Assembly (NCBI GenBank): GCA_963823335.1 | Contig: CAWGLD010000006.1 | Location: forward strand, 128,314 to 192,313 | Source: an uncultured delta proteobacterium | GTDB taxonomy: Bacteria > Desulfobacterota > Desulfobacteria > Desulfobacterales > B30-G6 | DNA: 64,000 bases | Direction of reading: 5' to 3' | Shown here: in pieces, positions 18,104 to 34,599 of the stretch | Layout: every line of letters begins with the position of its first letter | Position numbering within the stretch: the first letter of the stretch is position 1 | The notes under the pieces: model-generated | Database searches by the model: none | What the model saw: only the letters and a program-made list of their open reading frames with translations | What the model was told of the DNA's origin: nothing | Translations under genes and position numbers: made by a program

Positions 18104-18116
18104 ACATGGAGGTAAC

Positions 18117-21173: not shown

Positions 21174-23023
21174 ATGCACAAATTACTCACTGATGAGCCG
21201 GGCAAGAAAATGCTTCTTCTCGGAAATGAGGCCATCGCCAGAGGTGCCATCGAAGCAGGTGTCGCCTTTGCCACAACCTATCCAGGAACGCCGTCTTCTG
21301 AAATATCCCTTGCTCTTTTCCAGATGTCTCAGCAGTGCGACCTCTACTTCGAGTACAGCACAAATGAAAAAGTGGCCCTTGAAGTTGCTGCTGGAGCTGC
21401 CAATTCAGGTGTCAAAACCATGTGCATGATGAAACATGTGGGCTTGAATGTTGCAGCAGATCCACTCATGACCCTTGCTTACGTGGGTGTCAAAAGTGGT
21501 CTCGTCATCTTGACTGCAGATGACCCCTTTATGTTTTCGAGCCAGAATGAGCAGGACAACCGCTATTACGGAAAACTTTCGGGTTTGTCGATCATTGAGC
21601 CGTCTTCGGTGGAAGAAGCCAAGGAAATGATCCCTTATGCCTTTGATCTTTCACTAAAACTAAAGGAACCTGTCCTCTTCCGCACCACCACCCGCATTAA
21701 TCACTCCACAGGAATTGTCACCCTTGGTCCCATAGAGGAACGTATTACCAAGGGTACTTTTACAAAAGACCCGTTCAACTTGGTAACAGTGCCTGCTGTT
21801 TCACGAAAACTTCATGTCAAACTCCTGGATAACATTCAGAAAGCCCAGGAAATATCTGAGACATCAGAATACAATTTTTCTTCTGGTAATGGCCCTTGGG
21901 GTGTTGTCTGTAACGGAGTTAGTTACAATTACGTATGCGATGCCATCAAGGATCTGGGGATCGAAGATAAAACCAAACTCCTGCGAATCGGTTTTTCCCA
22001 TCCCTTGCCGGAAAAACGTATCCAGGAATTTATTTCCAGCTGTGAAAAAATACTCGTGGTCGAAGAAGGCGAACCCTTTATGGAAGAGGCCATCAGGTCA
22101 TTTGCACAGGAAATCCAGAGCACCATTCCCATCCAGGGAAAAGGTGAAGGGCTTTTCAGCCAACTTTATGAATTTGACCCCGCCCTGGTCAGGAGGGTTA
22201 TGGGCAAGTTCTTTGGGGTTCCCGTTTCAACGGCTGTGATTCCTGATCTGACCGATGTGCCGGAAATTCCCCAACGGCCGCCCAATCTGTGTGCGGGATG
22301 CTCCCACCGTGCCACTTTTTATGCTGTGGGAAAGGCGCTTGAAGGCCAAGAAACCATTTATCCAACCGATATCGGTTGTTACACACTCGGCTTTCTCCCC
22401 CCCTGTCCAAGGGTGATTTTCTCATTTGCATGGGTTCCTCAGTAAGCACATCCTGCGGGTTCTCAAAAACAACCGATAAAAAAGTCATTTCCTTTATCGG
22501 AGATTCTACATTCTTTCACTCCGGAATAACGGGGCTTGTCAATGCTGTCTTCAACAACCATAACTTCACTTTGATCATTCTCGACAACGGTACTACGGCC
22601 ATGACCGGGCATCAGCCCAACCCAGGTGTGGACATGGGCAATTTTAATCTGACCGATTTTGGCCGTATATCCATTGAAGAACTTGTCAAAGGAATCGGTG
22701 TAAAACATATCTCGAAAATCAAACCCTTCAGATTAAAAAAGAGCATACAGGCGATTAAAGACGCTGTAGCCTACGAGGGTGTCTCAGTAATCATAGCAGA
22801 AGAAATCTGTACCTTATACGCCAAGGGTTTGAAACAGTTAAAGGCCCGCCCCTTCCATGTAACCGACAAATGCAAGGACCATAAGGATTGTATCAGCAGT
22901 TTGGGATGCCCTGCATTTTTTATTGACGAGGGCCGTGTCAAAATTGATCCCGAGATATGTGTGGGATGTGCTGTCTGTGCTCAGATATGCCCTGAAAATG
23001 CAATATTGCCCATGAAATCATAG
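21174..23023 (+). pseudogene. iorA: indolepyruvate:ferredoxin oxidoreductase alpha subunit, interrupted by a frameshift in a C7 run (22397-22403)
   Basis: ORF 21174-22445 ends ...TDIGCYTLGFLPPCPRVIFSFAWVPQ*. The frame shifted by -1 continues LSPPLSKGDFLICMGSSVSTSCGF ... GDSTFFHSG ... CVGCAVCAQICP to 23023. Joined at the C run they give a contiguous ~616-aa IorA with TPP and 2x[4Fe-4S] regions. The start was moved to the ATG at 21174 (MHKLLTDEPGKKMLLLGNEA). Confidence 0.8.
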
Positions 23024-23193
23024 GGACGATTTCATGGAATGCGACCTTGTCGCTCCAACACAAAAGGCTATTAATCACGTATAGTTAGGACGATATGAAA
23101 TATGGATCATCTCCCAAAGAGTTGACCCAAATTAAGGATTCAAGGATTCCAGGGATCCAGGGTTCGAGTGAGATGACGTGAGGCGCCAGCTAA

Positions 23194-23489
23194 ATGCTTA
23201 AGAATTATAAAGAGTTAAAGGTTTGGAAACGCAGACGATGATATCCGGTGATTGTTCTACAAACCGCGTGCTTGGCACGCGGTTCCGAACCTGAACTTAC
23301 GGAGACGTGCCGTCTCCTTTGTTTTCCCCATTTTGGGGGAAATCCAAGCCACCCGTTTCACGGGTGGTAGTTGACTTGGATTATATGAACAAGGAAATGC
23401 TTGAGGAATTAAGAGAGGATCTTGGGGATGTAGAGAGAATGCTAAAAGCGATGATCAACTCCCTGGAAAACAAACACTTGAATCCTTGA
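23194..23489 (+). pseudogene. remnant of a four-helix-bundle (23S rRNA IVS-type) protein gene, middle replaced by Q125 insertion
   Basis: 23194-23241 reads MLKNYKELKVWKRRR*, which is family-typical (YKxLxVW). 23376-23489 reads LDYMNKEMLEELREDLGDVERMLKAMINSLENKHLNP*, which parallels the C-terminus of the intact copy at 55542 (YIDNETFNKLYSQAETVSRLTSGFIKYL). The Q125 element lies between the two pieces. Confidence 0.55.
23250..23375 (-). mobile_element. Q125 four-hairpin element, copy B (inverted relative to copy A)
   Basis: It is the reverse complement of copy A. It lies inside the four-helix-bundle pseudogene, splitting the N- and C-terminal remnants. Confidence 0.7.
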
Positions 23490-23611
23490 ATCCTGGACTC
23501 CTTGAACCCTTTCTCCCAACTGATTGGGAGAAGATCCTGAAATATTAACAAATTTTCTTTTTCGCGCTGCGCAAGCAGCGTGGAAAAAGAAAATTAAAGA
23601 TTGGACACATC

Positions 23612-24217
23612 ATGGAAACAAAAAGACTGATAATTGTAGCGGTGGGTGGCCAGGGAAACCTTCTGGCTTCGAAAGTTCTCGGCGAGGCGGCATTGATTTC
23701 CGACATACCAGTTAAAATGAGTGAAATTCATGGTATGGCTCAGAGGGGCGGCGTTGTTGAGTCCGCTATTGTTTTCGGAGATGCTAAAAGTACCATCATA
23801 TCTGACGGAGAGGCAGATATTCTGGTTGGGTTTGAACCTTCTGAAACCTTGCGTGCCCTGAACAAATGCAGCAAGGAGACAGTGGTTATTACCAACACAT
23901 CACCCCTGCCGCCATTTACCGTTGGCATTGGCATCGGAACATACCCTGACATGGATGAGCTCCAGCGCCTGATCAAGGAGAAAACGAGTCAATTGATTGC
24001 CTTTGATGCGTCTTCTCTGGCAAATCAGGCCGGCAACCCCATGTCTTTAAACATCGTTCTGCTGGGTGCGCTGATTCAGACAGGAATCCTGCCGTTGTCC
24101 GCCGAAAATATAAAGCATGCCATACGTACCACCACAAAACAGGCTTTTGTAGAGACCAATATCAAAGCCTTTGAGCTGGGTTTTTCTGCAGCAGAAAATG
24201 CTATGGAAAAGGAATGA
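23612..24217 (+). CDS. iorB: indolepyruvate:ferredoxin oxidoreductase beta subunit
   Basis: 201 aa. IIVAVGGQGNLLASKVLGEAA and HGMAQRGG motifs are present. It lies downstream of iorA. Confidence 0.85.
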   Translation: METKRLIIVAVGGQGNLLASKVLGEAALISDIPVKMSEIHGMAQRGGVVESAIVFGDAKSTIISDGEADILVGFEPSETLRALNKCSKETVVITNTSPLPPFTVGIGIGTYPDMDELQRLIKEKTSQLIAFDASSLANQAGNPMSLNIVLLGALIQTGILPLSAENIKHAIRTTTKQAFVETNIKAFELGFSAAENAMEKE

Positions 24218-24335
24218 ACATCGAACATTCAACATCGAATTTTGAATGAACAGATGAAGAAACAGATGTGTGACCTGGGGTTGAACTTTTTTCATTCATC
24301 ATTGGACGTTCGATGTTCGATGTTGGACGTTCATC
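24212..24335. repeat. W2 hairpin element between iorB and paaK
   Basis: The left arm is GAATGAACATCGAACATTCAACATCGAATTTTGAATGAAC and includes the iorB TGA stop at 24215-24217. The right arm is TTCATTCATCATTGGACGTTCGATGTTCGATGTTGGACGTTCATC. Confidence 0.8.
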
Positions 24336-24363
24336 TTTTAAAAAATCATCAAGGAGGTATCAA

Positions 24364-25671
24364 ATGCCCTGGAATAAAGAATTCGAGTGCATGCCGGCCG
24401 CAAAACTCAAAGCCTTGCAACTGGAAAAGCTGAAAGAAACGGTTGCGTGGGTATCCAAAAAAGTTCCTTTCTACCAAAAAAAATTCAAGGAAATGGGGGT
24501 TAGACCGGGTGACATTAAACGTCTGGAAGATATCGCCAAATTCCCTGTTACCGTTAAAGAGGATTTGCGCGACAATTACCCCTTTGGCTTGTGTGCAGTG
24601 CCTCTGAAGGAGGTTGTCAGGGTGCACGCCTCCTCAGGAACCACTGGTAAGCCGATTACCGGTCCTTATACCCAAGAAGACCTGGATCAGTGGACAGAAT
24701 GTATGGTCCGGAATTTCTGGGCCGCAGGTGTTCGGCCCGAAGATATCGTTCAGAATGCCTACGGTCATGGACTCTTCACCGGTGGTCTCGGTTTTCATCA
24801 AGGATCGACCGCCCTCAAGTGCACAACGGTTCCAACAAGCGCCGGGCTGACGGAACGTCAGATTACATTGATGAAGGACTTTGGTGCCGATGTGCTCTGC
24901 TGCACACCCTCATATGCATTGACAATTGCGGAACGCGCTGAAGAATTAAAAGTCGATATCCGCAAACTGCCCTTAAGGGTTGGCTTGTTCGGTGCCGAGC
25001 CCTGGACGACTCAAATGCGCATAGAAATTGAAGAACGTATGGGCATCAAGGCGCATGAAGCCTATGGTTTGACGGAACTCGGCGGACCTGGTGTTTCATT
25101 TGACTGCGAGGCTCAGGATGGCCTGCATATCAACGAGGACCACTTTCTGGCCGAAATTGTCGATCCGGTGACCATGGAACCGCTGCCTCTCGGTGAAAAA
25201 GGCGAACTTCTTTTCACATCTTTGCAGCGCAGGGCCATGCCCATGATTCGATATCGTACCAAAGATATCACCAGTCTCAGGCGGGAAAAATGTGCCTGCG
25301 GCCGCACCTTGATCAAAATGAAGAAGGTGTTTGGACGCACTGACGACATGCTGATCATCAGCGGTGTCAACGTGTTCCCATCCCAGATAGAATCCTTGCT
25401 GCTCGACATCGATGAAGTCGAACCGCAGTATCGCATGATTGTACGTAAAAAAGGCTATCTCGACCAGCTCGTGGTTCAGGTTGAAGGCAAAAAAGAAATA
25501 TATGATGCGGGGCCGGACAAGCGTTCAGAAATCGAAGGCAAGATCATGGGGCATATCAAGGGCAATATGGGCATCGGGGTCGAAGTCAATCTTGTAGAGC
25601 CCAAGTTTATCGCCAGAAGCGAAGGCAAGGCCCTGCGTGTTGTGGATGAACGGCCCAAACAATTAAGATAA
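24364..25671 (+). CDS. paaK: phenylacetate-CoA ligase family protein
   Basis: SSGTTGKPITGPYTQEDLDQW is PaaK-typical. The start was moved to the ATG at 24364, which follows AAGGAGG. Upstream codons translate a W2 repeat arm. Confidence 0.85.
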   Translation: MPWNKEFECMPAAKLKALQLEKLKETVAWVSKKVPFYQKKFKEMGVRPGDIKRLEDIAKFPVTVKEDLRDNYPFGLCAVPLKEVVRVHASSGTTGKPITGPYTQEDLDQWTECMVRNFWAAGVRPEDIVQNAYGHGLFTGGLGFHQGSTALKCTTVPTSAGLTERQITLMKDFGADVLCCTPSYALTIAERAEELKVDIRKLPLRVGLFGAEPWTTQMRIEIEERMGIKAHEAYGLTELGGPGVSFDCEAQDGLHINEDHFLAEIVDPVTMEPLPLGEKGELLFTSLQRRAMPMIRYRTKDITSLRREKCACGRTLIKMKKVFGRTDDMLIISGVNVFPSQIESLLLDIDEVEPQYRMIVRKKGYLDQLVVQVEGKKEIYDAGPDKRSEIEGKIMGHIKGNMGIGVEVNLVEPKFIARSEGKALRVVDERPKQLR

Positions 25672-25760
25672 AATACACCCGAGCTAAGGTAAGCGATACT
25701 GATCAAAGATTATATGGATTTTTGCAGATTTTATGCTTCGGATTTAAAGGGGGTATTTAT

Positions 25761-26705
25761 ATGAAAGAAAAATCGTCATTTAGTCCCCGGAAATTCGCTG
25801 TTATCGGTGCTGGCCCTGTGGGATGCATCGTTGCTGCTTTCCTCGCAAAGCACGGCTATGATGTCACCCTTTGCGATATCATGCCTGAATTGCTGAAACC
25901 GGCCCTGGACCCCGGTATCACCCTCGAAGGGGCTGAAAACCTCCTGCAACCGGTAAGCCGTACTTGCCTGACGGTTGACGAACTGGCAGACCACAAACCA
26001 GATGTCATTTTTATTACAGTCAAAGCCAATGCGCTCCCCTTGATCGTATCGGCCATTGAAGGCTTTTATCATGAGGGAATGTTTGTCGTCAGCTGGCAGA
26101 ACGGTATCGACACAGAGCTTGTAATTTCCAAGACCCTTGGAGACAAAGCTTCCCTGCGTGCCGTCGTAAATTACGGTTGTGCTTTAACATCACCCTGTCA
26201 CGTCTCCATGCCATTTCACCACCCACCGCACTTTATTCAGGAGCTCAATCCCGAGTCAAAAGATGCCGCCGTTGCCATTGCCAAGTCCCTAAGCCAGAGC
26301 GGTCTTGAGACAGAGCGCACCGACCAGATTATCTCGATGGTATGGCGCAAAGGGGTTTTGAATGCCTGCATGAATCCTGTATGTGCTGTAACCGGACTCA
26401 CCATGGCTCAGGCCATGAATGATCCTATTGTCTTCAACATTGTCGACAACCTTGTCAAGGAGTGCATCAAGGTTGCACGGGCTAATGAAATCAACTTGGG
26501 GTGGGACTTCTACCCCAATGCCATTGCCTACATGCGTAATGCCGGCAATCATAAACCTTCCATGTTGATGGATATCGAAAATAAACGACGAACGGAGATT
26601 GACTATATCAATGGGAAATTCGTCGAGTATGGCCAGCGGGCTGGCATTGAAACGCCCTACAACATCTCATTGCGTTCCCTGGTTAAAGGGTTAGAATCCA
26701 AATAA
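25761..26705 (+). CDS. 2-dehydropantoate 2-reductase family oxidoreductase (possible 2-oxoacid/arylpyruvate reductase)
   Basis: The Rossmann motif VIGAGPVGC and the family block KPSMLMDIENKRRTEIDYINGKFVEYG are present. The start was moved to the ATG at 25761. Confidence 0.75.
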   Translation: MKEKSSFSPRKFAVIGAGPVGCIVAAFLAKHGYDVTLCDIMPELLKPALDPGITLEGAENLLQPVSRTCLTVDELADHKPDVIFITVKANALPLIVSAIEGFYHEGMFVVSWQNGIDTELVISKTLGDKASLRAVVNYGCALTSPCHVSMPFHHPPHFIQELNPESKDAAVAIAKSLSQSGLETERTDQIISMVWRKGVLNACMNPVCAVTGLTMAQAMNDPIVFNIVDNLVKECIKVARANEINLGWDFYPNAIAYMRNAGNHKPSMLMDIENKRRTEIDYINGKFVEYGQRAGIETPYNISLRSLVKGLESK

Positions 26706-27523
26706 TGGCAGCATCGAAACCCATCTTTGTCGGCGTCGATGTGGGGGCATCCCGAACCAAGCTGGCTATTTTAGACTCAGGGCATCGGCTTCTCGGTCAT
26801 GCTGTCCAAAAATCAGGAACTGATTTTTCTGCAACAGCCGACCTCTGCCTTGAAACATCCCTCAAAATGGCCAACGCGGATAGATCCGATATCAAACGCG
26901 TGGTCTCTACGGGCTATGGCCGAAAAAATGTCACCTACTCTGACGAAACCAAAACCGAAATTGGGTGTCATGCAAAGGGCTGCTACCTGTATTTTCCTTT
27001 TGCGACCACCATTATCGATATCGGCGGACAGGACAACAAGGTAATCAAGCTGGACGACAGGGGTCACAGAACCAGTTTTAAAATGAACCGCAAATGCGCC
27101 GCTGGAACAGGCGCTTTTCTGGAGGAAATGTCCCCACGTTTGGACATCCCTCTCGAAGCAATGGATGGGCTGGCCAGGAAATCTGAGAACATGATTAAAC
27201 TGGGTAGCTTCTGTACTGTATTTTCCGGCACTGAAGTGCTTGAAAACATACGCAAGGGTAAAAAAGTCAGCGATATTATCAAGGGCTTGTTTTATTCGGT
27301 CATTAAGCGGGTCATCGAAATGGATGCATTTACAGATTCCGTGGTGATGACGGGTGGTGTGGTTGCTCATAATCCTTATCTCGTAACCATGATGGAAGAA
27401 ATCATTAATAAACAGATTCTCGTGCCCGAGTTTCCCCAATTGACCGGAGCCATCGGGGCGGCACTGTATGCACATGAAGGGTTTGAGGGTTCGAGGGGTG
27501 GAGGTTTGGAGGGGGGTAGCTGA
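26705..27523 (+). CDS. BadF/BadG/BcrA/BcrD-type ATPase, 2-hydroxyacyl-CoA dehydratase activase (HgdC-like)
   Basis: 272 aa. VGVDVGASRTK, IIDIGGQDNK and CAAGTGAFLE are present. The last ~15 codons (EGFEGSRGGGLEGGS) and the stop codon lie inside a W1 repeat. Confidence 0.85.
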   Translation: MAASKPIFVGVDVGASRTKLAILDSGHRLLGHAVQKSGTDFSATADLCLETSLKMANADRSDIKRVVSTGYGRKNVTYSDETKTEIGCHAKGCYLYFPFATTIIDIGGQDNKVIKLDDRGHRTSFKMNRKCAAGTGAFLEEMSPRLDIPLEAMDGLARKSENMIKLGSFCTVFSGTEVLENIRKGKKVSDIIKGLFYSVIKRVIEMDAFTDSVVMTGGVVAHNPYLVTMMEEIINKQILVPEFPQLTGAIGAALYAHEGFEGSRGGGLEGGS

Positions 27524-27567: not shown

Positions 27568-27614
27568 TGAAAAACGAATGCTATTGGTAAAGAAATAAAA
27601 AATCAAAACTCATA

Positions 27615-27733
27615 ATTGAAGAACCTCGCAGCAAGCTACGAGGAATCTTCGACCGTAAGGAATTCTTTCTAATTTAGATGCGCTCGCTAACCCCGCAGCA
27701 AGCTACGGGGAATGCGCTCGCTGTTGCGGTTCA
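27615..27733 (-). repeat. T13 twin-hairpin element, full-length copy
   Basis: The reverse complement reads GAACCGCAACAGCGAGCGCATTCCCCGTAGCTTGCTGCGGGGTTAGCGAGCGCATCTAAATTAGAAAGAATTCCTTACGGTCGAAGATTCCTCGTAGCTTGCTGCGAGGTTCTTCAAT. Confidence 0.75.
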
Positions 27734-27757: not shown

Positions 27758-29005
27758 ATGAACGACGAAAAAAAGATCAATATTCGACGATTGAAAACAG
27801 CCCGGGATATGGGGAAATTCATGGCAGACTACTACTATGAATTGGATGATGCATCAAAAAGCGGCAAGCAGAAAATCGCCTGGTGCACCAGTGTGGGGCC
27901 TGCTGAAATCCTCAGGGGCATGGGGTTCCTGACGTACTTTCCGGAAACCCACTCTGCCATGCTCGGCACGACCCGAATGGCTGTGGATCTTATACCCAAA
28001 GCCAATGCAATGGGATATTCTCCGGAAATTTGTTCTTATCTGACTGCCGATATCGGGGCTTTTTTAGAGGGTGTCTCACCTCTATCCAGGGCATTTAAAG
28101 GAATCGAAGGGGTCCCCAAGCCGGACGTGCTGGTATTCAACACCAATCAGTGCCGGGATGTACAGGACTGGTTTGCATGGTATGGTGAAAAATTTAATGT
28201 ACCGGTTGTGGGTGTCCACACCTATCGGGGCGTGAAAGATGTAACACCTTCACACATTACCTCCATTGCCAGGCAGATGGAAAACATTGTCGAGCCGCTG
28301 GAAGAAGTTGCCGGACGAAAACTGGATATGGACGAGTTCAAGCACGCCGTTGGTTTATCCAGGGAGTGCTCAGACCTGTGGGAAAAATGTCTTGCTGCAG
28401 CAGCGGCTAAACCTTCTCCCCTTTCTTTTTTTGATGCCACCACCCTTATGGGCCCGGCTGTCGTTGGTCGCGGAACCCAGAAAGCACTCGATGCATACAA
28501 GCTCCTCCTGGAAGAACTGGAAGAGCGTGTTAGCGATGGAATCGGCACTATAGACAATGAGCGGCACCGCATTTACTGGGACGGCATGCCGGTCTGGGGC
28601 CGTTTGAGCATGCATTCCAAACTGTTTGCAGGCTTGAATGCCAACGTCATTGCATCCACCTACTGCAGTTCCTGGATATTCTCTGCCCTTGAAGCCGAGG
28701 ATCCTTTTAACAGCATGGCCCGGGCCTATACAGAGCTCTTTATCGTCAGGTCCGACGAATATAAAGAACAATATATTAAGGACAAACTCAGCTTGTTCGG
28801 TATCGATGGGGTTGTCTACCATGACGCCAAAACCTGCCCCAACAACTCCAACTGCAGATATGGTATGCCGCAACGACTTGAGGATGAAACTCACATACCA
28901 AGCCTGACCATCAACGGGGACTTAAATGATCTGCGACTTCTATCCGACGAACAGACCAAGACCAATGTGGAAGCGTTTATCGAACAACTGGAAGAAAATA
29001 GTTAA
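27758..29005 (+). CDS. 2-hydroxyacyl-CoA dehydratase family protein (single HgdB/BcrB-like subunit)
   Basis: 415 aa. IAWCTSVGPAEILRGMG is present, with conserved Cys contexts NQCRDVQDW and HDAKTCPNNSN. Confidence 0.8.
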   Translation: MNDEKKINIRRLKTARDMGKFMADYYYELDDASKSGKQKIAWCTSVGPAEILRGMGFLTYFPETHSAMLGTTRMAVDLIPKANAMGYSPEICSYLTADIGAFLEGVSPLSRAFKGIEGVPKPDVLVFNTNQCRDVQDWFAWYGEKFNVPVVGVHTYRGVKDVTPSHITSIARQMENIVEPLEEVAGRKLDMDEFKHAVGLSRECSDLWEKCLAAAAAKPSPLSFFDATTLMGPAVVGRGTQKALDAYKLLLEELEERVSDGIGTIDNERHRIYWDGMPVWGRLSMHSKLFAGLNANVIASTYCSSWIFSALEAEDPFNSMARAYTELFIVRSDEYKEQYIKDKLSLFGIDGVVYHDAKTCPNNSNCRYGMPQRLEDETHIPSLTINGDLNDLRLLSDEQTKTNVEAFIEQLEENS

Positions 29006-29087
29006 CCCAGGGAATCAAAAAGCCGGTTAGAAATTGAAATCCAGAGAAATTGGAAATAATCGTTAATGATAAACTTTAAATCCGAAT

Positions 29088-29239
29088 ATCGAAATACGAG
29101 ACAAATTTTACTATCGAATGTTCAAAGAATCAAAACAACGCAAGGGCTTGGAGTTAAGTTCTTGTTTTAATCATTTGAATTTGGGTATTTTTGTATTGTT
29201 TAGGATTTCGATATTCGTGCTTCGTATTTGATGGAGGAT
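29088..29239. repeat. W11 element (CGAATATCGAAATACGA words)
   Basis: The left arm is AAATCCGAATATCGAAATACGAGACAAA. The right arm is TTTAGGATTTCGATATTCGTGCTTCGTATTT. The same word family occurs at 36949-37032. Confidence 0.6.
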
Positions 29240-29242
29240 ACC

Positions 29243-31321
29243 ATGTTAGACACCCTATTCAGACCCAAATCCGTCGCCATTATCGGCGCATCGACCAAAG
29301 AGCTGTCCATCGGTAACCGCATCATTCGAAACCTTGTGGATTTTGGCTTCAAGGGACCCATTTTCCCTATCAATCCCAAAGCGGATGAGGTCAGGGGCAT
29401 CAAGGCCTACAAGTCCATATTGGATGCGCCGGACAATATCGATGTTGTCCACATGGTCATTCCAGCAAAATTCGTACCCATGGCTGTGGAAGACTGCGGC
29501 AAAAAAGGTGTCAAAAACATCATTATCAACTCGGGTGGTTTTTCCGAAATCGGCCCCGAAGGCGCTGTCTATGAAAAGGCGTTTCTTAAAAAAGCCAGAC
29601 AATACAATATTCGCGTTTTAGGCCCCAATTGCCAGGGAATCATCAATTCAGATCCCGAAGTAAGAGCCTACTGCAATTTTACATTTACCAAGCCCGATAC
29701 TGGTCATATCTCCATCGTGGCCCTCAGCGGTGGGGTAGCTGAAGTTATTCACCAGGGCTTTTCCGCCATGGGCGTAGGCACACGCATCTATGCTTCAAAC
29801 GGTAACGCCTGCGACATCACAATTCCGGAAATCATTCAATACCTCGGTGATGATGACGGGACGCGGGTAATCGTCACATACGTCGAAGGGTTGAGGGATC
29901 CGGCGACCTTCATGAAAGTCGCCCGGGAAGTTGCAGCAAAAAAACCGATCTTGGCTATGAAGGCCGGCAGAACCATGCAGGGGGCCAAAGCTGCAGCTTC
30001 TCATACCGGTGGTTTGGCCAAAGAAGATCTTGCAACAGACCTGATATTTAAAAAAGCCGGCGTACTGACTTTCATGGACGAGGGTGAGTTGATCCAGGCA
30101 GCCGCTGCCTTTGCATCCCAGCCTGTTCCAAAAGGTAATCGTGTGGGTATTATCACCAACACAGGGGGTCCGGCCGTCATCGCTACCGACATACTGGTGG
30201 GTGCCGGTGCGGAAATACCCCCGCTGTCAAAAAAAACAGAAACCCTCCTGAAAGACAGTCTCTTTCCGGAAGCATCTGTCAACAATCCGGTAGATGTGCT
30301 TGCCACGGGGAATGCCGCGCATTACCGAACATGTATGGATGCCATGATAGCAGACGATAGTTTTGATGCCCTCTATATCAATTTCGTAACACCCTTTTTT
30401 GTTGACACGGACAGCATCGCCAAGGAGATTGCCGCGGTCAATCAACAGGGGCGAAAGCCAATGGTCTGCAACCTGATGACGGACAAAAAACAGTGGGCGG
30501 AAACTACAAACATTCTGATGCAGGCGCAAGTTCCGACATATGCCCTGCCGGGCGAGGCTGCACGTGCCATGACTGCGCTGGTACGTTACCAGGGTATTCT
30601 GGCCCGTGACATAGGAGACGCTGCTGTTTTCAACGATGTAGACAAAGACAACGTCAGTGGAATTCTTAGCCGTGCCAAAGAGGCTGGGCTCACGTTTCTG
30701 ACGGCTGCGGACGCATACGATATACTGGGGGCATATGGCATTCCTTCGGCAAAATGGTCCATGGTGAACACGGCCGAACAGGGAGCCGCTGCCGCCGAAG
30801 ACATGGGGTATCCTGTTGTTGTCAAGGCAGACGCAGCTTCCATTGTACACAAAAGCGACATGGGTGCTGTGGCTGTGAATCTCAAGACTGCCGCCGAGGT
30901 TCAAAAAACCATCTCTGGAATGCGTGAACGTCTTAAAACGGACGATCTCAAGTTCTTTGTCCAGAAATATCTTCCAGGAGGACTTGAAATTATTCTGGGC
31001 GCCAAGGCGGAACCCGGTCTGGGTCATTTGATCATGTTCGGGATGGGAGGTATCTACGTCGAAGTACTCAAAGATGTGGTGTTCAACCTGACACCGGTAA
31101 CTTCATTTGAGGCTAGAGAAATGCTCGATGCCATTCAGCTGTCACCTATTTTAAAGGGTGTCCGGGGTCAGAAAGGGATATGTCGAGACGGCGTCACGGA
31201 CATCATTCAACGTTTGTCACAGCTCGTTTTGGATCACCCCATGATCCAGGAGCTGGACTTGAATCCCACATTGGCGTTTGAAGACAGGGTGGTAGTGGTG
31301 GATGCGAGGATCAGCATTTAG
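29243..31321 (+). CDS. ADP-forming acyl-CoA synthetase (fused alpha/beta, ACS-II-like)
   Basis: The CoA-binding N-terminus SVAIIGAS, the succinyl-CoA-synthetase-like flavodoxin domain (HTGGLA phosphohistidine loop) and a C-terminal ATP-grasp are present. The start was chosen at the ATG at 29243 after GGAGGA (29233-29238). Confidence 0.85.
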   Translation: MLDTLFRPKSVAIIGASTKELSIGNRIIRNLVDFGFKGPIFPINPKADEVRGIKAYKSILDAPDNIDVVHMVIPAKFVPMAVEDCGKKGVKNIIINSGGFSEIGPEGAVYEKAFLKKARQYNIRVLGPNCQGIINSDPEVRAYCNFTFTKPDTGHISIVALSGGVAEVIHQGFSAMGVGTRIYASNGNACDITIPEIIQYLGDDDGTRVIVTYVEGLRDPATFMKVAREVAAKKPILAMKAGRTMQGAKAAASHTGGLAKEDLATDLIFKKAGVLTFMDEGELIQAAAAFASQPVPKGNRVGIITNTGGPAVIATDILVGAGAEIPPLSKKTETLLKDSLFPEASVNNPVDVLATGNAAHYRTCMDAMIADDSFDALYINFVTPFFVDTDSIAKEIAAVNQQGRKPMVCNLMTDKKQWAETTNILMQAQVPTYALPGEAARAMTALVRYQGILARDIGDAAVFNDVDKDNVSGILSRAKEAGLTFLTAADAYDILGAYGIPSAKWSMVNTAEQGAAAAEDMGYPVVVKADAASIVHKSDMGAVAVNLKTAAEVQKTISGMRERLKTDDLKFFVQKYLPGGLEIILGAKAEPGLGHLIMFGMGGIYVEVLKDVVFNLTPVTSFEAREMLDAIQLSPILKGVRGQKGICRDGVTDIIQRLSQLVLDHPMIQELDLNPTLAFEDRVVVVDARISI

Positions 31322-31376
31322 CTCATAGCCTTTAGCTGTTAGATAGCTATCAGCTAAGGGCTAACAGCTATGAGCT
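31320..31376. repeat. W6 hairpin (AGCTCATAGC..GCTATGAGCT)
   Basis: AGCTCATAGCCTTTAGCTGTTAG, loop ATAGCTATCAGCTAAGGG, then CTAACAGCTATGAGCT. It starts inside the TAG stop (31319-31321). Confidence 0.8.
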
Positions 31377-31463
31377 GCGTCGTGTTGATAGATTCAGAAT
31401 AGTTTTAACTTCTCTTACTTACATAACAAGCAACGCTTTAATAAGACGCATAAGGAGACGCCC

Positions 31464-33029
31464 ATGACCGCCTGGATGAATTTGGGTCAGCAGTTAAAAA
31501 TAAATGCATCCAAGTACCCCGACACCATCGCACTGGCAGATAAAGACCGTAAATTTACCTATCCCGAGACCAACCAGCGGGTAAACAGAGTGTGCCATAG
31601 CCTACTGTCGTTGGGTTTGCGTAAGGGCGACAAGATAGCGGTGTTCATGGAAAACAGCATCGAGATCGTGGAAATTTTTCTGGCGACAGCCAAAACAGGC
31701 CTTGTGATCGTGCCCATCAATTTCCGTCTCGTGGGAAAAGAGGTCACCTACATCGTCAACAATTCAGATGCAAAAGCGTTCATTATTGATGCTGAGTTCA
31801 CACCCATGCTGGATGGTATCAAAGCGGACCTGGAGAATATCCCATCTGAAAATTACATCGTAGTCGGGAAAGCTGTTGATGGGTATCAAGCCTACGAGCT
31901 TTTCATGGGAAAAAGTCAGAGTCATGAACCTGAATGTCCTGTGGCGCCCGAAGATACCTGGATTTTGATCTACACCTCCGGCACAACCGGCAAACCGAAA
32001 GGGGTGGTTCGTTCCCACGAGTCTCATATTGCCTTTTTCCTTATCAATGCCATCGATTTCGGATTTAACGATCATGATGTCTGCCTGAATGTCATGCCCT
32101 TGTGTCATATCAACTCAACCTTTTTTACATTTACCTTCACCTATATCGGAGCAAGCGTATATATTCATCCGGCCCGTTCATTCAAACCCGAACAAATTCT
32201 CGATATTATTCAGAAGGAAAAAATCACGTTTATATCATTGATCCCAACCCACTATAACCTGATTCTGAACATTTCGGAAAAAGCCAAAAAATACAATGTC
32301 ACGTCTATCCGGAAACTACTCTGTTCTTCTGCACCGGTTCACAAAAAAATGAAACTTGCCATTATGGCGTTTTTCACGGACGTAGAACTTTTTGAAGCTT
32401 ATGGCTCCACAGAAGCCGGCATTGTCACGGTTCTGAAACCTGAAAATCAACTTCGAAAATTGGGTTCCATTGGACAAGAATCCCTTGGCACTGATTTTAT
32501 CAAAATTCTTGATGAAAACGGAAAAGAAGTCGCTCCCGGAGAGGTGGGCGAATTGTACTCCCGGGGTCCCATGTTGTTCGATGAATATTACAAACTGCCC
32601 GACAAAACAAAAGAGGCTTTTCAAGGGGAATGGTTCAGTGCCGGCGACATGGCCCGTAAAGATGCAGACGGTTTTTATCAGATCGTCGACAGAAAGGACA
32701 ACATGATCATCACCGGGGGGGAAAATGTCTACCCCAGTGAAATCGAAGAAGTTGTCGGCAGCAACGATTGCGTATTCGACTGCGCGGTTATCGGCATCCC
32801 CGACGACAAATGGGGCGAGAAAGTTGTCGCAGTGGTCATTCCCAAGGGCAGTGAGGAGATTCAAATCACCGAGAAAATGATCATGGATTGCTGCAAGGAT
32901 CAGATGGCAGGTTACAAACGACCAAAGGAAATCCTGTTTATCAAAGAGGATGAAATGCCCCGTACACCCACGGGGAAGATTCTGCACAGGAAATTGCGGG
33001 AGCATTTTAGAAATAGGGTTCCAGAATAA
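31464..33029 (+). CDS. AMP-forming acyl/aryl-CoA ligase
   Basis: 521 aa. YTSGTTGKPKGVVRSH and GDMARKDADGFYQIVDRKDNMII are present. Confidence 0.85.
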   Translation: MTAWMNLGQQLKINASKYPDTIALADKDRKFTYPETNQRVNRVCHSLLSLGLRKGDKIAVFMENSIEIVEIFLATAKTGLVIVPINFRLVGKEVTYIVNNSDAKAFIIDAEFTPMLDGIKADLENIPSENYIVVGKAVDGYQAYELFMGKSQSHEPECPVAPEDTWILIYTSGTTGKPKGVVRSHESHIAFFLINAIDFGFNDHDVCLNVMPLCHINSTFFTFTFTYIGASVYIHPARSFKPEQILDIIQKEKITFISLIPTHYNLILNISEKAKKYNVTSIRKLLCSSAPVHKKMKLAIMAFFTDVELFEAYGSTEAGIVTVLKPENQLRKLGSIGQESLGTDFIKILDENGKEVAPGEVGELYSRGPMLFDEYYKLPDKTKEAFQGEWFSAGDMARKDADGFYQIVDRKDNMIITGGENVYPSEIEEVVGSNDCVFDCAVIGIPDDKWGEKVVAVVIPKGSEEIQITEKMIMDCCKDQMAGYKRPKEILFIKEDEMPRTPTGKILHRKLREHFRNRVPE

Positions 33030-33038
33030 TTTCATAAA

Positions 33039-33268
33039 GATGAACGTCCAACATCGAACGCTGAACATCGAACATCGAATGAAAACAAATATTAAAGAGC
33101 ACACTGTAACAAGACTTGTCGACGAGGAGTTTGGCTGAGGCTCACTCGAAGACCTATAGTCAAGTCGCTACGGGAAATGTGCTCAGTATTGCCGTTCAAT
33201 ACTGACGTCTGTTTCTTCATATTTCAAATTCAACATTCGATGTTGGACGTTCGATGTTCGAAGTTCAT
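33039..33268. repeat. W2 hairpin element with degenerate T13 in loop
   Basis: The left arm is GATGAACGTCCAACATCGAACGCTGAACATCGAACATCGAATG. The right arm is TTCAACATTCGATGTTGGACGTTCGATGTTCGAAGTTCAT. The loop contains GCTACGGGAAATGTGCTCAGTATTGCCGTTCAA. Confidence 0.75.
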
Positions 33269-33408
33269 TTGTTTTTGGACACCAGGTTATTGTGTCGACA
33301 CCATAGGGTGGGATGCGAACCTTATTCGCAAATTCGTACTTTCGTAATAAAAGATTTTTATTGTGACGTAACAAGTTAAAACTAGTATTTACCGAAAGGA
33401 GACCGACA

Positions 33409-34599
33409 ATGTTAACCAAAGCCTTTATCCCCTACGGCGGTTATTACAGCTCACCGTTTTGCCGCTGGCAGGGAAGTCTGCAGAACGAAAATTCCATTGT
33501 ACTGGGTGCTGAAACCTCTAAACGGTGGCTTGCCGAAAAGGGCTACGATGCCGGTATGTTCGATTATCTTTACCTCGGTGTCACCATCAGTCAGATTCAT
33601 CAGTTCTACGCCGCTCCCTGGGCCGCAGCCTTGATGGGGGCCGGTCATGTACCCGGTATTGCCTTGAGTCAGGCCTGCACCACCGGTACCACCTGCGTTT
33701 TTCAGGCAGCCGTCGGCGTGGAAACAGGACTCTATAAAAATGCATACGTTCTGACGACGGACCGTACGTCCAACGGGCCACATACGATTTGGCCGAACCC
33801 CAAAGGACCCGGTGGTGAAGTTATTTCGGAGAACTGGCTCATGGACAACTTCAACGGTGACCCAAATGTTGGCCTGAGGATGATTGAAACGGCAGAAAAT
33901 GTTGCCAAAGAGGAAGGCATAACAAAGGAAGCCTGTGATGCCGCCTCATTGAAACGCTACGAGCAATATCTCATGGCGCTGGAAAACGACCGCGAGTTTC
34001 AGAAAAAATACATGTTTCCGGCGGAAATTCAACTATCCAGAAAAAAAAGTATTCTCGTGGAAGAAGATGAAGGCATTACACCCGCCACGGCCGAAGGATT
34101 GGCTTCCCTCAGGCCGTTGATACCCAACGGTGTTCTCAGTTTCGGTGCCCAGACCCATCCAGCCGACGGCAATTCGAGTATGATCGTCACCACCCAGGAG
34201 AAAGCCAAAGAACTGAGTGCCGATCCTTCCCTGCCGATTCAAGTGATCGCCTACGGTTTCTCCAGGGAGAGAAAGGGCTACATGGCAGCCGCCCCGGTTC
34301 CGGCGACCAAAATGGCGCTGGCTAATGCAGGTCTCGCTATCAACGACATGAAAGTCATCAAATCACACAACCCGTTTATCGTGAATGACATCAACTTTGC
34401 CAAACAATTCAATATCGATGTCGACAAAATGAATAACTATGGGTGTTCCATGATCTATGGACATCCCCAGGGATCTACGGCAACACGTCTGATTATAGAG
34501 GGTATCGAAGAAACCGTCATTAACGGCGGTGGCTATTTTCTCTGGACCGGCTGTGCCGCAGGAGACTGCGGGGCCGCTTTAATCCTCAAAATCGGATAA
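33409..34599 (+). CDS. thiolase-like protein (divergent acetyl-CoA acyltransferase family)
   Basis: 396 aa. The Cys region SQACTTG and the C-terminal GCAAGDCGAALILK are present. It is divergent from classical thiolases. Confidence 0.65.
   Translation: MLTKAFIPYGGYYSSPFCRWQGSLQNENSIVLGAETSKRWLAEKGYDAGMFDYLYLGVTISQIHQFYAAPWAAALMGAGHVPGIALSQACTTGTTCVFQAAVGVETGLYKNAYVLTTDRTSNGPHTIWPNPKGPGGEVISENWLMDNFNGDPNVGLRMIETAENVAKEEGITKEACDAASLKRYEQYLMALENDREFQKKYMFPAEIQLSRKKSILVEEDEGITPATAEGLASLRPLIPNGVLSFGAQTHPADGNSSMIVTTQEKAKELSADPSLPIQVIAYGFSRERKGYMAAAPVPATKMALANAGLAINDMKVIKSHNPFIVNDINFAKQFNIDVDKMNNYGCSMIYGHPQGSTATRLIIEGIEETVINGGGYFLWTGCAAGDCGAALILKIG

Follow-up and report, generated by a model that had tools for sequence, protein, structure and literature searches.

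Described systems for comparison are the fld and had clusters, in which a FldA/HadA CoA-transferase is found together with an enoyl-CoA/acyl-CoA reductase or Etf, the reductase FldH is of the D-2-hydroxyacid dehydrogenase type and the dehydratase FldBC is a heterodimer, and, for phenylacetate, the Pad route (PadBCD/PadEFGHI), which proceeds by alpha-oxidation. To our knowledge, every 2-hydroxyacyl-CoA dehydratase characterised so far is an alpha-beta heterodimer. Their subunits have been divided into catalytic and supporting classes (PMC7317905, PMC11971306). Proteomics of Desulfococcus multivorans, which is without padB and padEFGHI, gave a set comparable to the one described here and formed specifically on phenylacetate and phenylpyruvate: IorA3B3 and CoA ligases along with a hydratase, a dehydrogenase and a thiolase; these proteins were assigned to one catabolic module, also with “phenyllactate to phenylpyruvate” genes, and phenyllactate supported growth, but the authors did not complete the route and termed IOR formation on phenylacetate “gratuitous” (PMC5109826).

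The cluster described here was found in a window of 64 kb (the whole stretch of DNA that was analysed). Unlike fld and had, it carried a single HGD-D gene, a KPR/ApbA-family reductase, an AMP-ligase as candidate substitute for the CoA-transferase, and neither an enoyl-CoA/acyl-CoA reductase nor an Etf; orthology with the fld genes, as suggested by the first-pass annotation, was not borne out for either the reductase or the dehydratase. We propose, with about even confidence, that the cluster is a catabolic funnel leading from C6-C3 2-oxo or 2-hydroxy acids, with C6-C2 arylacetates as probable further substrates, to benzoyl-CoA (or ring-substituted aroyl-CoA) and acetyl-CoA. Phenylpyruvate and phenyllactate would most likely be converted to benzoyl-CoA, and phenylacetate probably too, every substrate assignment being a prediction.

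Gene order and conservation

All nine gene families named in the first-pass annotation were found on the + strand in the order given there (ORF list; Pfam and NCBIfam profiles): iorA-iorB-paaK-KPR-activase-HGD-D-ADP-forming synthetase-AMP-ligase-thiolase (21174-34599). Gene content and coordinates also agreed, apart from the split iorA and the single HGD-D. An intrinsic-terminator-like hairpin (34643..34679, + strand; 16-bp stem, then a T-run) closed the cluster 44 nt past the thiolase stop, and the next gene was on the opposite strand.

At least 547 HGD-D relatives were confirmed in the collection scan; the best 80 of these, from 80 species-level genomes, were 70-96% identical and belonged to Desulfobacterales, Syntrophobacteraceae, Desulfobulbales and Anaerolineae. 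The order KPR-activase-HGD-D-(ACD)-ligase-thiolase, preceded by iorA-iorB-paaK and SCP2-thiolase-DUF35-ECH, recurred in all four groups at a protein identity of about 70% throughout. With its order repeated in dozens of species-level genomes, the arrangement goes far beyond what chance would give. The cluster is real, not rare, and conserved among many sulfate-reducing and related anaerobes.

Full flanks were available for 43 related loci. Of these, 100% had the activase beside HGD-D, 93% had the KPR-family reductase, 91% the AMP-ligase and 67% IorAB; a frequency of 53% was found for PaaK, for the ADP-forming synthetase and for the thiolase, and the complete nine-gene set was found in 18. KPR, activase and HGD-D were almost inseparable between genomes, which supports the proposed logic of a 2-oxoacid reductase, an activase and a 2-hydroxyacyl-CoA dehydratase acting together. 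One third of the full-flank loci carried KPR-activase-HGD-D-ligase with no IorAB in the vicinity, so the dehydratase module is independent of IOR.

Reductase, dehydratase and CoA-forming enzymes

The KPR/ApbA-family NAD(P)H 2-oxoacid reductase (25761..26705; PF02558, PF08546) matched TIGR00745 at subfamily level (188.5 bits vs. 141.35) without reaching the equivalog models, and is a candidate arylpyruvate reductase yielding aryllactate; the orthologous position in Desulfonema magnum is annotated “putative phenylpyruvate reductase”. Its stop overlapped the start of the HgdC/FldI-type ATP-dependent activase (26705..27523; PF01869, 163.7 bits; TIGR00241, 207.6 bits vs. 125.4), in which C131 and C170 were invariant among 68 orthologues and which was adjacent to HGD-D in 77 loci.

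HGD-D (27758..29005; PF06050, 211 bits), a single 2-hydroxyacyl-CoA dehydratase alpha-like protein, had HadB alpha as its best solved relative (3o3m_A, E=1.9e-50, 29% identity), followed by MbdO and BzdO, with DCCP marginal; no beta or N-type subunit was matched among the solved relatives. C92, C132 and C360 aligned with the cluster ligands and were invariant, as were four further cysteines. This 3-Cys motif and the proximity to HadB alpha identify HGD-D as the catalytic type, and it is a candidate aryllactyl-CoA dehydratase, an assignment against which the low identity to HadB and the four additional cysteines weigh. The heterodimeric nature of every characterised enzyme of this kind speaks against a one-subunit dehydratase, and a partner gene may lie elsewhere in the genome; HGD-D was the only such gene in the 64-kb window, where no partner or beta subunit gene was found, and we presume that HGD-D is homomeric.

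Three CoA-forming enzymes were encoded. The PaaK-like AMP-forming arylacetate-CoA ligase (24313..25671, likely true start M18 at 24364; PF14535) scored 543.5 bits on TIGR02155, below the cut-off of 646.3, and was adjacent to iorB in 35 loci and to KPR in 37. The AMP-forming acyl-CoA ligase (31464..33029; PF00501, 288.6 bits; PF13193) had FadD5, FadD13 and a feruloyl-CoA synthetase as its nearest structures. The scores for PaaK, HadB, KPR and the ligases were all below the equivalog cut-offs, and sequence by itself does not give their substrate specificities. The third enzyme, a fused alpha-beta NDP(ADP)-forming acyl-CoA synthetase (29228..31321; PF13380, PF13607, PF13549), resembled most closely the ADP-forming 4-hydroxybutyrate-CoA ligase (8wzu, E=6e-129) and was a facultative member, invariably located between HGD-D (49 adjacencies) and the AMP-ligase (40 adjacencies).

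No CoA-transferase was found among the scanned ORFs of the window, which covered those of 130 aa or longer, as had been noted earlier, nor were a CoA-transferase, acyl-CoA dehydrogenase or Etf present inside the cluster in five Pfam-annotated neighbourhoods or in the window. With the AMP-ligase so widely conserved, the suggestion that a ligase replaces the FldA-type transferase is supported, and this enzyme is a candidate aryllactate-CoA ligase in the place of FldA/HadA. One locus (L088) had an acyl-CoA dehydrogenase on the opposite strand, outside the cluster and 8 kb away from it.

Beta-oxidation neighbours and the proposed route

A beta-oxidation set was always near the cluster, either as a 677-aa 3HCDH+ECH fusion (20 loci) or as ECH with a Had-like Zn-ADH or SDR, plus thiolases. 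In the window these were, on the + strand, a FabG-like SDR (15908..16660; PF13561, PF00106), a candidate 3-hydroxy-3-arylpropionyl-CoA dehydrogenase; an SCP2-type thiolase (16784..17950; PF22691, PF00108; BbsB-like, 168 bits, below cut-off), a candidate 3-oxo-3-arylpropionyl-CoA (benzoylacetyl-CoA) thiolase; its DUF35/ChsH2-type Zn-ribbon OB-fold partner (18039..18551; PF12172, PF01796); and a crotonase-family ECH (18757..19524; PF00378, 173 bits; 141 bits on the Dch model, below the cut-off of 292), a candidate cinnamoyl-CoA hydratase. SCP2 and DUF35 were adjacent in 11 loci, DUF35 and ECH in 17, and ECH was immediately upstream of iorA in 19; the SCP2-type thiolase was upstream of iorA in 9 of the 43 full-flank loci, many of which stop short of that position. 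The divergent thiolase (33409..34599; PF00108, PF02803) followed the AMP-ligase in 34 loci, and its catalytic C90, GHP His and second cysteine C382 aligned with solved thiolases and were invariant in 28 orthologues; it is a further candidate benzoylacetyl-CoA thiolase.

Two genes of the benzoyl-CoA lower pathway were adjacent on the - strand: Oah, 6-oxocyclohex-1-ene-1-carbonyl-CoA hydrolase (13082..14215; TIGR03200, 538.9 bits vs. a cut-off of 464.45), and Had (14390..15493; TIGR03201, 480.2 bits vs. 338.65). HGD-D of Anaerolineae abutted true orthologues of Oah and Had, with Oah directly beside it in L078 and L080. These observations support the suggested link to aromatic metabolism, and the conserved beta-oxidation genes point to a cinnamoyl-CoA product that would be oxidised to benzoyl-CoA.

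In the proposed route, the KPR-family reductase would convert arylpyruvate to (R)-aryllactate, and the AMP-forming ligase would give aryllactyl-CoA; in loci that have it, the ADP-forming synthetase may perform the same activation more cheaply or activate a second acid. This step would call for a ligase, not for an FldA-type CoA-transferase, because the product remains a CoA ester. The activase would pass one low-potential electron to HGD-D, presumably a homodimer, which would remove water via a ketyl radical to form (E)-cinnamoyl-CoA. ECH (or the ECH/3HCDH fusion of other genomes), a 3-hydroxyacyl-CoA dehydrogenase (SDR, Had-like Zn-ADH or fusion) and the divergent and/or SCP2-thiolase with DUF35 could then yield acetyl-CoA and benzoyl-CoA, the latter entering the benzoyl-CoA pathway.

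An isochorismatase-family hydrolase (19880..20494, + strand; PF00857) was found in the closest relatives only, with an 88-aa remnant in L090, and is a lineage-specific passenger outside the core.

Role and structure of the IOR genes

The first-pass annotation had coupled IOR to the ADP-forming synthetase as an ATP-yielding oxidative half, and the dehydratase to a reductive aryl-lactate end, which would amount to a Stickland-like branch with IOR running forward. The synthetase was never beside IOR and was missing in about half of the loci, some of which retained IorAB; on grounds of parsimony, a forward IOR would leave phenylacetyl-CoA without an outlet among these genes and make PaaK and the ADP-forming synthetase a futile pair. 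No enoyl-CoA reductase belonged to the cluster, which is accompanied by hydratase, 3-hydroxyacyl-CoA dehydrogenase and thiolase genes instead of a reductase or Etf. The Stickland-like branch is not supported.

We tentatively suggest the reverse direction, in which PaaK would activate phenylacetate and IorAB would reductively carboxylate phenylacetyl-CoA with CO2 and reduced ferredoxin to phenylpyruvate, feeding the reductase; we consider this feed possible but rather doubtful. It would replace the Pad alpha-oxidation route, absent from these strict anaerobes, and, if true, could explain phenylacetate degradation by strict anaerobes without the known phenylacetate pathway. In D. magnum (dnm_055550-055680), the order SDR-thiolase-DUF35-ECH-iorAB-paaK was the same, with KPR and HGD-D elsewhere; such a link of beta-oxidation genes to iorAB-paaK is intelligible only if IOR and PaaK lead into a pathway ending in beta-oxidation. 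The D. multivorans genes Dmul_C24850-70 may be the counterparts of KPR, activase and HGD-D. In this species, IOR reached a higher abundance on phenylpyruvate than on phenylacetate (PMC5109826), whereas one would most simply expect the reverse of a carboxylating IOR. The homologous D. magnum proteins were listed among “constitutive” proteins over 11 substrates, which a housekeeping role of the cluster would fit as well as the catabolic one.

The alpha subunit gene of indolepyruvate/arylpyruvate:ferredoxin oxidoreductase, iorA (21174..23023), matched TIGR03336 (IOR_alpha) in two overlapping ORFs (model 2-397, 502 bits; 393-595, 228 bits). Its frame was broken at a C-run (22397-22403) with one base fewer than in L005, L006, L007 and L062; IorA is unbroken in close relatives (615-616 aa), and the loss is probably a sequencing error. 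The beta subunit gene iorB (23612..24217) reached 208.2 bits on TIGR03334 (cut-off 205.8) and 132.6 bits on PF01558. Between the two, comparison with relatives revealed a repeat-laden insertion of 515 bp (23024..23538) that the relative L005 (96% identical) lacks. The insertion contained the remnant of a four-helix-bundle gene of the 23S-IVS type, accompanied by inverted heptamer-like repeats, and nested in it was a four-hairpin element of 130 nt (23249-23376); pieces of the insertion matched a different site in L007.

Gene content of the cluster

Nine genes, all on the + strand, occupied positions 21174-34599; ORF listing and profile searches bore out the gene list and coordinates of the first-pass annotation. 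iorA (21174-23023; ORF and profile search) and iorB (23612-24217; TIGR03334), together encoding IOR, were followed by genes for a PaaK-like ligase (ORF 24313-25671; TIGR02155, PF14535), an oxidoreductase of the ketopantoate-reductase (KPR/ApbA) family (25761-26705; PF02558/PF08546, TIGR00745), an HgdC-type activase whose start was overlapped by the KPR stop (26705-27523; PF01869, TIGR00241), a PF06050 protein here called HGD-D (27758-29005), a fused ADP-forming acyl-CoA synthetase or ACD (29228-31321; PF13380, PF13607, PF13549), an AMP-forming ligase (31464-33029; ORF and profile search) and a thiolase (33409-34599; ORF and profile search). A terminator with a 16-bp stem, 44 nt past the thiolase gene, was the sole feature to stand out in the promoter/terminator scan. 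The promoter scan of the cluster was uninformative (27 sites vs. 25.3 expected), and no structured RNA or riboswitch was found in 15000-36000 (Rfam, E up to 0.1).

Directly upstream, on the same strand, were genes for an SDR, an SCP2-type thiolase with its DUF35 partner, a crotonase (ECH) and an isochorismatase-family protein. Divergent from these were the genes for Had and Oah, both of which exceeded their NCBIfam cut-offs; the benzoyl-CoA lower-pathway genes expected nearby were thus present. The upstream ECH, considered as a dienoyl-CoA hydratase (Dch), fell below the cut-off for that function and was treated as a generic crotonase. The isochorismatase-family gene (19880-20494, between ECH and iorA) was found only in the closest relatives and was cut to an 88-aa remnant in a 93%-related contig (L090, 3327-3593); at this position, most other genomes had a Had-like Zn-ADH or a 3HCDH/ECH fusion.

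The lack of a CoA-transferase, also proposed in the first-pass annotation, was borne out: no such domain was present in the scanned window ORFs of at least 130 aa, nor in five related neighbourhoods with precomputed Pfam annotation; the AMP-ligase was conserved instead, in 91% of the full-flank loci described below. No enoyl-CoA/acyl-CoA reductase or Etf belonging to the cluster was found in the window or in the neighbourhoods of its relatives.

The reductase carried PF02558/PF08546, not PF00389/PF02826, and was recognized by the subfamily model TIGR00745 (188.5 bits vs. 141.35), every equivalog model being far under its cut-off. Genomic context argues for its action on a 2-oxoacid other than ketopantoate, and the Desulfonema magnum gene in the same position has been annotated as a “putative phenylpyruvate reductase” (PMC11887813). 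The iorB product reached the IOR_beta equivalog model (TIGR03334, 208.2 bits vs. 205.8). The product of 24313-25671 matched TIGR02155 over its full length with 543.5 bits, under the 646.3 cut-off, and had the C-terminal domain PF14535; on these scores it is PaaK-like, not a certified PaaK equivalog. ACD was a single fused protein of 697 aa, not separate alpha and beta subunits, with the SHTGG phosphohistidine loop visible in its translation; its nearest structure was the acid-activating, ADP-forming 4-hydroxybutyrate-CoA ligase (8wzu_A, E=6e-129). In the thiolase, C90, the GHP motif and C382 aligned with the Cys-His-Cys residues of a solved thiolase (9bwk_A), and both cysteines were invariant in 28 orthologues; with 168.9 bits against a TIGR01930 cut-off of 240.55, the protein is a divergent member of its family.

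A putative single-subunit dehydratase and its activase

HGD-D matched PF06050 with 211 bits. Its closest solved relative was HadB alpha, the catalytic subunit of 2-hydroxyisocaproyl-CoA dehydratase (3o3m_A, E=1.9e-50, 29% identity, 175 bits), followed by MbdO (102 bits) and BzdO (81 bits), the catalytic O subunits of class I benzoyl-CoA reductases; the match to DCCP was marginal (21 bits, E about 1e-3), and no beta or N-type supporting subunit was matched among the solved relatives. Against the HadB equivalog model it scored 216 bits (cut-off, 750). C92, C132 and C360 aligned with the ligand cysteines of HadB and BzdO (Cys95/128/380 in BzdO; PMC11971306) and were invariant in 78 orthologues, as expected for a 3-Cys [4Fe-4S] motif. 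C43, C204, C303 and C366, without counterpart in HadB, were also invariant in these orthologues, and W42, just before C43, aligned with BzdO Trp46, a residue that fills the site of a lost sub-cluster. The four extra cysteines may bind an additional Fe-S cluster in a partner-less enzyme.

Only one PF06050 gene was present among the scanned window ORFs and in each of the five Pfam-annotated neighbourhoods, and no second conserved gene family of a size suitable for a beta subunit was found in 78 loci. The most plausible view is thus that HGD-D, a subunit of the catalytic type, functions on its own and is presumably homodimeric; a beta-type partner may be encoded elsewhere in the genome, outside the window. 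The activase belonged to the BcrAD/BadFG/HgdC family (PF01869, 163.7 bits; TIGR00241, 207.6 bits vs. 125.4), and its C131 (KCAAGTG) and C170 (FCTVF) were invariant in 68 orthologues. As in HgdC, these two residues are taken to be the ligands of the bridging [4Fe-4S] cluster.

Class I benzoyl-CoA reductases (BzdNO, MbdNO) and DCCP share both the superfamily and the activase type with this pair, and HGD-D and its activase might form an ATP-driven low-potential reductase of one of these types, acting on an aryl-CoA or another difficult substrate. The catalytic component of DCCP is likewise a homodimer encoded by one gene, unlike the heterodimeric dehydratases (PMC7317905); MbdO and BzdO were the second and third best solved relatives of HGD-D; and four of its seven invariant cysteines lay beyond the 3-Cys motif. 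A reductase is nevertheless highly improbable, since the HadB alpha score was clearly above those of MbdO, BzdO and DCCP, and since a tightly linked 2-oxoacid reductase and acid-CoA ligase would supply just what a 2-hydroxyacyl-CoA dehydratase requires. HGD-D resembled the catalytic O/alpha subunits, without the N-type partner of BzdNO and MbdNO. A double-cubane enzyme was rejected as the main reading because the DCCP match was marginal and the spacing of the invariant cysteines (43, 92, 132, 204, 303, 360, 366) did not fit the 7-Cys motif of DCCP, CX19CX18-19CX29CX166-170CX32-34CX32C (PMC7317905).

Conservation and a proposed route to benzoyl-CoA

A scan of the HGD-D protein against one genome per GTDB species gave at least 547 confirmed relatives. 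The best 80 were 70-96% identical and came from Desulfobacterales (including D. magnum, Desulfosarcina and Olavius symbionts), Syntrophobacteraceae, Desulfobulbales (Desulfoprunum benzoelyticum) and Anaerolineae. Further carriers were Desulfocastanea catecholica and Desulforhabdus, and the complete genomes with the cluster included CP070746, CP070697, OY771548, NZ_CP061800 and OY970341. The cluster members were about 70% identical across orders, so that they behave like a single unit passed on by inheritance or transfer. The cluster points to a one-subunit radical dehydratase widespread in sediment bacteria.

Three recurrent layouts were obtained by tblastn and ORF clustering over the HGD-D loci. 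Type A, that of the window, began with SCP2-thiolase, DUF35, ECH and then a 3HCDH/ECH fusion or a Had-like Zn-ADH, and continued with iorA, iorB, paaK, KPR, activase, HGD-D, ACD, ligase and thiolase. Type B ran from IclR through iorAB, (paaK), an ACT-domain protein, KPR, activase, HGD-D, ligase and a second ligase to a YaaH-type transporter, 3HCDH, a 3HCDH/ECH fusion and thiolase. Type C, from Anaerolineae, consisted of Oah, Had, the fusion, HGD-D, ACD, ligase, a KPR-like gene, activase and thiolase. In the 43 loci whose flanks extended at least 7 kb upstream and 6 kb downstream (full-flank loci), the activase was present in 100%, KPR in 93%, the AMP-ligase in 91%, IorAB in 67%, and PaaK, ACD and thiolase in 53% each; all nine genes appeared in the order of the window in 18 of them. 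IorAB and PaaK were the constant upstream neighbours, with the beta-oxidation genes attached on their side, and a hydratase, a 3-hydroxyacyl-CoA dehydrogenase and a thiolase always accompanied the cluster. In D. magnum the beta-oxidation genes stayed with iorAB-paaK, and KPR and HGD-D were located elsewhere.

The dehydratase part of the cluster resembled FldAIBC/FldH of Clostridium sporogenes and HadAIBC/LdhA of Clostridioides difficile in its HgdC-type activase, its catalytic subunit with a 3-Cys [4Fe-4S] motif and its dedicated upstream 2-oxoacid reductase. By analogy, the chemistry expected would be the conversion of an (R)-2-hydroxyacyl-CoA to an (E)-2-enoyl-CoA via a ketyl radical. Three features that define Fld and Had were lacking. 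A single gene, 29% identical to HadB, stood without a beta subunit; the reductase was of the ketopantoate-reductase family instead of the D-2-hydroxyacid dehydrogenase family of FldH, LdhA and HgdH; and the AMP-ligase, often with ACD, took the place of a family III CoA-transferase (FldA, HadA) or GctAB. The latter agrees with the earlier suggestion that ligases substitute for FldA, given the frequency of the AMP-ligase in the loci and the absence of a CoA-transferase. Unlike in Fld and Had, no acyl-CoA dehydrogenase/Etf for enoyl-CoA reduction was present and beta-oxidation genes followed; the hosts were respiring Desulfobacterota and Chloroflexi, not amino-acid-fermenting Firmicutes. The absence of both a CoA-transferase and an enoyl-CoA reductase/Etf, together with the constant beta-oxidation set, indicates an oxidative route and not the clostridial reductive branch to arylpropionate.

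In the route proposed here, PaaK would activate phenylacetate and IOR, running in reverse, would convert the activated arylacetate and CO2 to arylpyruvate. KPR would reduce arylpyruvate to (R)-aryllactate, the AMP-ligase, perhaps with ACD, would convert this to aryllactyl-CoA, and HGD-D with its activase would dehydrate aryllactyl-CoA to cinnamoyl-CoA. Activation by a ligase would be required, as CoA is not recycled through the release of a free enoate. Beta-oxidation of cinnamoyl-CoA through 3-hydroxy-3-arylpropionyl-CoA and 3-oxo-3-arylpropionyl-CoA would then yield benzoyl-CoA and acetyl-CoA, the former being handled by the adjacent Had and Oah. For the core of this scheme, from arylpyruvate to benzoyl-CoA and acetyl-CoA via a radical dehydratase, we consider the chances evenly balanced. 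The carboxylating direction of IOR, to which pathway logic points, is put forward tentatively, at less than even probability. An oxidative IOR would leave phenylacetyl-CoA as a dead end in this gene set and make PaaK and ACD a futile pair; a carboxylating IOR would place every gene on a single linear path from phenylacetate to benzoyl-CoA. Carboxylating IOR is physiologically established in amino-acid synthesis from arylacetates by rumen bacteria and methanogens. Three observations weigh against the proposal: the IOR of Desulfococcus multivorans was more abundant on phenylpyruvate than on phenylacetate (PMC5109826), the D. magnum homologues are listed as constitutive (PMC11887813), and one third of the full-flank loci had no IorAB nearby.

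The complete “carboxylate-then-cleave” route for phenylacetate in strict anaerobes without Pad enzymes, including a homomeric dehydratase encoded by one gene, is somewhat unlikely to hold in all its parts, and its extension by analogy to 4-hydroxyphenylacetate and indoleacetate is doubtful to the same degree. Like the Pad pathway of Thauera and Aromatoleum (PadJ, PadBCD, PadEFGHI), it would lead from phenylacetate to benzoyl-CoA under anoxic conditions and start with a PaaK/PadJ-type ligase. In the Pad route, the alpha-carbon is oxidised by a membrane Mo-enzyme and phenylglyoxylate is decarboxylated; in the proposed one, CO2 would be added and C2 then removed as acetyl-CoA. With one CO2 and two reducing equivalents entering and one acetyl-CoA leaving, the stoichiometry balances with that of the Pad route. 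No Pad-type genes were found in the 64-kb window.

The first-pass annotation had instead proposed a branched arylpyruvate metabolism, here read as a Stickland-like scheme in which IOR and ACD would form arylacetate and ATP, and the reductase, ligase and dehydratase would form arylpropionate as an electron sink. Every enzyme family that it names is present, and IOR with an NDP-forming synthetase is an established archaeal route (PMC5109826); the co-occurrence of both families in one cluster recalls IorAB and ACS II of Pyrococcus furiosus. The IOR of Desulfococcus multivorans was also most abundant on phenylpyruvate, more so than on phenylacetate (PMC5109826). Against this picture of two halves, ACD never adjoined IOR, always followed HGD-D and was missing from 47% of the full-flank loci; it is a fused alpha-beta synthetase, apart from IOR and dispensable in half of the loci, unlike ACS II. 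The constant partner of IOR was the AMP-forming PaaK, an irreversible activator of the same acid; the enoyl-CoA/acyl-CoA reductase, Etf and CoA-transferase that the reductive half calls for were missing from cluster, window and relatives; the conserved neighbours were beta-oxidation and benzoyl-CoA-pathway genes; and the carriers are mostly respiring complete oxidisers, which do not need an organic electron sink. The branched scheme is thus very unlikely.

Two unrelated modules may also have come to adjoin: an anabolic salvage module, in which IorAB-PaaK, with an ACT protein in other genomes, would make aromatic amino acids from external arylacetates, and a KPR-activase-HGD-D-ligase-thiolase module degrading another acid, e.g. 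2-oxoisocaproate from leucine or another aliphatic acid. We regard this arrangement, in both its parts, as unlikely. IorAB-PaaK-ACT is a common stand-alone trio in anaerobes. One third of the full-flank loci had the dehydratase module without IorAB nearby, D. magnum keeps the modules apart, and the best characterised relative of HGD-D is the alpha subunit of 2-hydroxyisocaproyl-CoA dehydratase; this relationship, however, amounts to just 29% identity and a score far under the equivalog cut-off. The modules were contiguous and co-oriented in 67% of the full-flank loci, from several orders; the beta-oxidation genes on the IOR-PaaK side are not explained by an anabolic role; and Oah and Had adjoined the cluster both in the window and in Anaerolineae. 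The proteins are listed as constitutive in D. magnum (PMC11887813), as separate modules would allow, but a comparable module of D. multivorans was formed specifically on phenylacetate and phenylpyruvate.

Neither padB nor padEFGHI is present in D. multivorans, which grows on phenyllactate as well as on phenylacetate and phenylpyruvate (Dörries et al., PMC5109826). Proteins formed specifically on the last two substrates are a TRAP transporter, CoA ligases, a hydratase, a dehydrogenase, a thiolase and IorA3B3 (PMC5109826). The corresponding module (Dmul_C24740-C24870), beside bam and ring-cleavage genes, holds IorAB, CoA ligases, hydratase, dehydrogenase and thiolase genes as well as “phenyllactate to phenylpyruvate” genes (PMC5109826); the D. 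magnum genes dnm_025890-025920 and dnm_055550-055680 (PMC11887813) represent the same kind of gene set, also with “phenyllactate/phenylpyruvate” genes. For D. multivorans the match is one of gene kinds, not of established orthologues, and the D. magnum locus (L082) has an HGD-D 70% identical to that of the window in the same ACT-KPR-activase-HGD-D-ACD order. In both papers the assignments were made by proteogenomics alone, phenylacetyl-CoA being led to phenylglyoxylate via hydratase, dehydrogenase and thiolase with the last step left open; unlike the route proposed here, their schemes contain no radical dehydratase or carboxylating IOR. Dörries et al. could not complete the pathway and termed the formation of IOR on phenylacetate gratuitous (PMC5109826). 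The proposed route would account for each of the D. multivorans proteins so formed, with Dmul_C24850-70 as putative counterparts of KPR, activase and HGD-D.

The cluster had already been noticed at the proteogenomic level, and the mechanism and biochemistry given here are a proposal made from sequence. The literature search yielded no paper in which phenylacetate degradation is proposed to involve a carboxylating IOR or a radical dehydratase; a 2026 study of the benzene degrader BzS1 merely speculates on a phenyllactyl-CoA dehydratase linking phenylpyruvate to cinnamoyl-CoA. The Pad enzymes are missing in the genomes of Desulfobacula toluolica and D. multivorans, and the route from phenylacetate and phenylalanine-derived acids to benzoyl-CoA has been open since (PMC5109826). 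With a candidate gene for each step of a complete and chemically coherent route, this long-standing gap becomes directly testable. If the proposal is true, radical dehydratases would belong to the standard equipment of respiring degraders of aromatic compounds in marine and freshwater sediments, and ATP-activated 2-hydroxyacyl-CoA dehydratases would leave the niche of amino-acid-fermenting clostridia for abundant sediment Desulfobacterota and Chloroflexi. It would also define a one-subunit, ligase-fed variant of this enzyme class, and the HGD-D gene, given its identity across orders among the best 80 of at least 547 relatives, could serve to mark the turnover of aromatic amino acids and phenylacetate where oxygen is absent.

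Disruption of iorA, repeats and further genes of the window

iorA was read in two overlapping frames (502.2 and 227.8 bits vs. an IOR_alpha cut-off of 650.9), which jointly covered model positions 2-595; IorA was intact in relatives (615-616 aa). The window was one base short in a run of seven C (22397-22403), where four close relatives (L005, L006, L007 and L062) aligned with CTN CCN CCC CTG. The simplest explanation is probably a homopolymer sequencing miscall, and the gene may alternatively be a recent pseudogene. A programmed frameshift or selenocysteine was ruled out by the single missing base in this run compared with the four relatives.

An insertion of 515 bp (23024-23538), built from repeat elements and missing in the 96%-identical relative L005, separated iorA from iorB. 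It consisted of a decayed four-helix-bundle gene of the 23S rRNA intervening-sequence type, with N- and C-terminal peptide remnants visible, flanked by inverted heptamer-like repeats (GGATTCAAGGATTCCAGGGATCCAGGG... / ...CTTGAATCCTTGAATCCTGGACTCC); a copy 91-95% identical was present at a different site in L007 (1239-1579). A 130-nt element of four consecutive perfect hairpins occurred on either side of iorA in inverted orientation (20900-21029, − strand; 23249-23376, + strand), the two copies being 97% identical, with RNA folding z-scores of -6.3 and -7.2 and no Rfam match. Exact-core copies with unrelated flanks on four metagenome contigs (L084-L087) indicate that it is either a MITE/REP-like element that has dispersed or a small structured RNA not described before.

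The tandem heptamer GTTCGAT/GTTGGAC was found as inverted pairs in intergenic gaps (3010-3146, 24216-24338, 33036-33268 and 56640-56949), with 12 matches at up to 3 mismatches vs. 0.04 expected; the iorB-paaK and ligase-thiolase gaps are unusually long because they are filled by this motif. Inverted repeats of 23-55 nt with 85-96% complementarity, containing the hairpin CCTCGTAGCTTGCTGCGAGG, were common to the region upstream of iorA (20877-21114) and the activase/HGD-D gap (27615-27714), and are either a further family of intergenic repeats or a regulatory site common to both places.

Further from the cluster, a 1029-aa fusion of unusual architecture (5071-8160, − strand) joined APH-type kinase and peptidase M23 domains to a class III aminotransferase; no link to the cluster was evident. 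A 221-aa protein beside a GNAT acetyltransferase (11570-12898, − strand) had no Pfam match; its family recurred next to the cluster in five other genomes (L030, L043, L052, L056 and L083), and it may be a regulator or modifier of CoA ligases. The genes at 38654-42573 encoded a molybdenum hydroxylase of three subunits (2Fe-2S, FAD and Mo). Its large subunit scored best against the 4-hydroxybenzoyl-CoA reductase alpha model (752 bits; cut-off, 994) and its FAD subunit matched the beta model in two separate stretches only (144 bits; cut-off, 404); the enzyme possibly dehydroxylates aroyl-CoA, to serve those substrates of the cluster that carry hydroxyl groups. An operon for a Liv-type ABC transporter (46860-54000) encoded two ATPases, two permeases and a solute-binding protein; the gene for an AMP-binding protein of 597 aa lay between those for the ATPases and the permeases. 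Another Liv-type transporter of this kind flanked the cluster in L088, and the operon is a candidate aromatic-acid uptake system.
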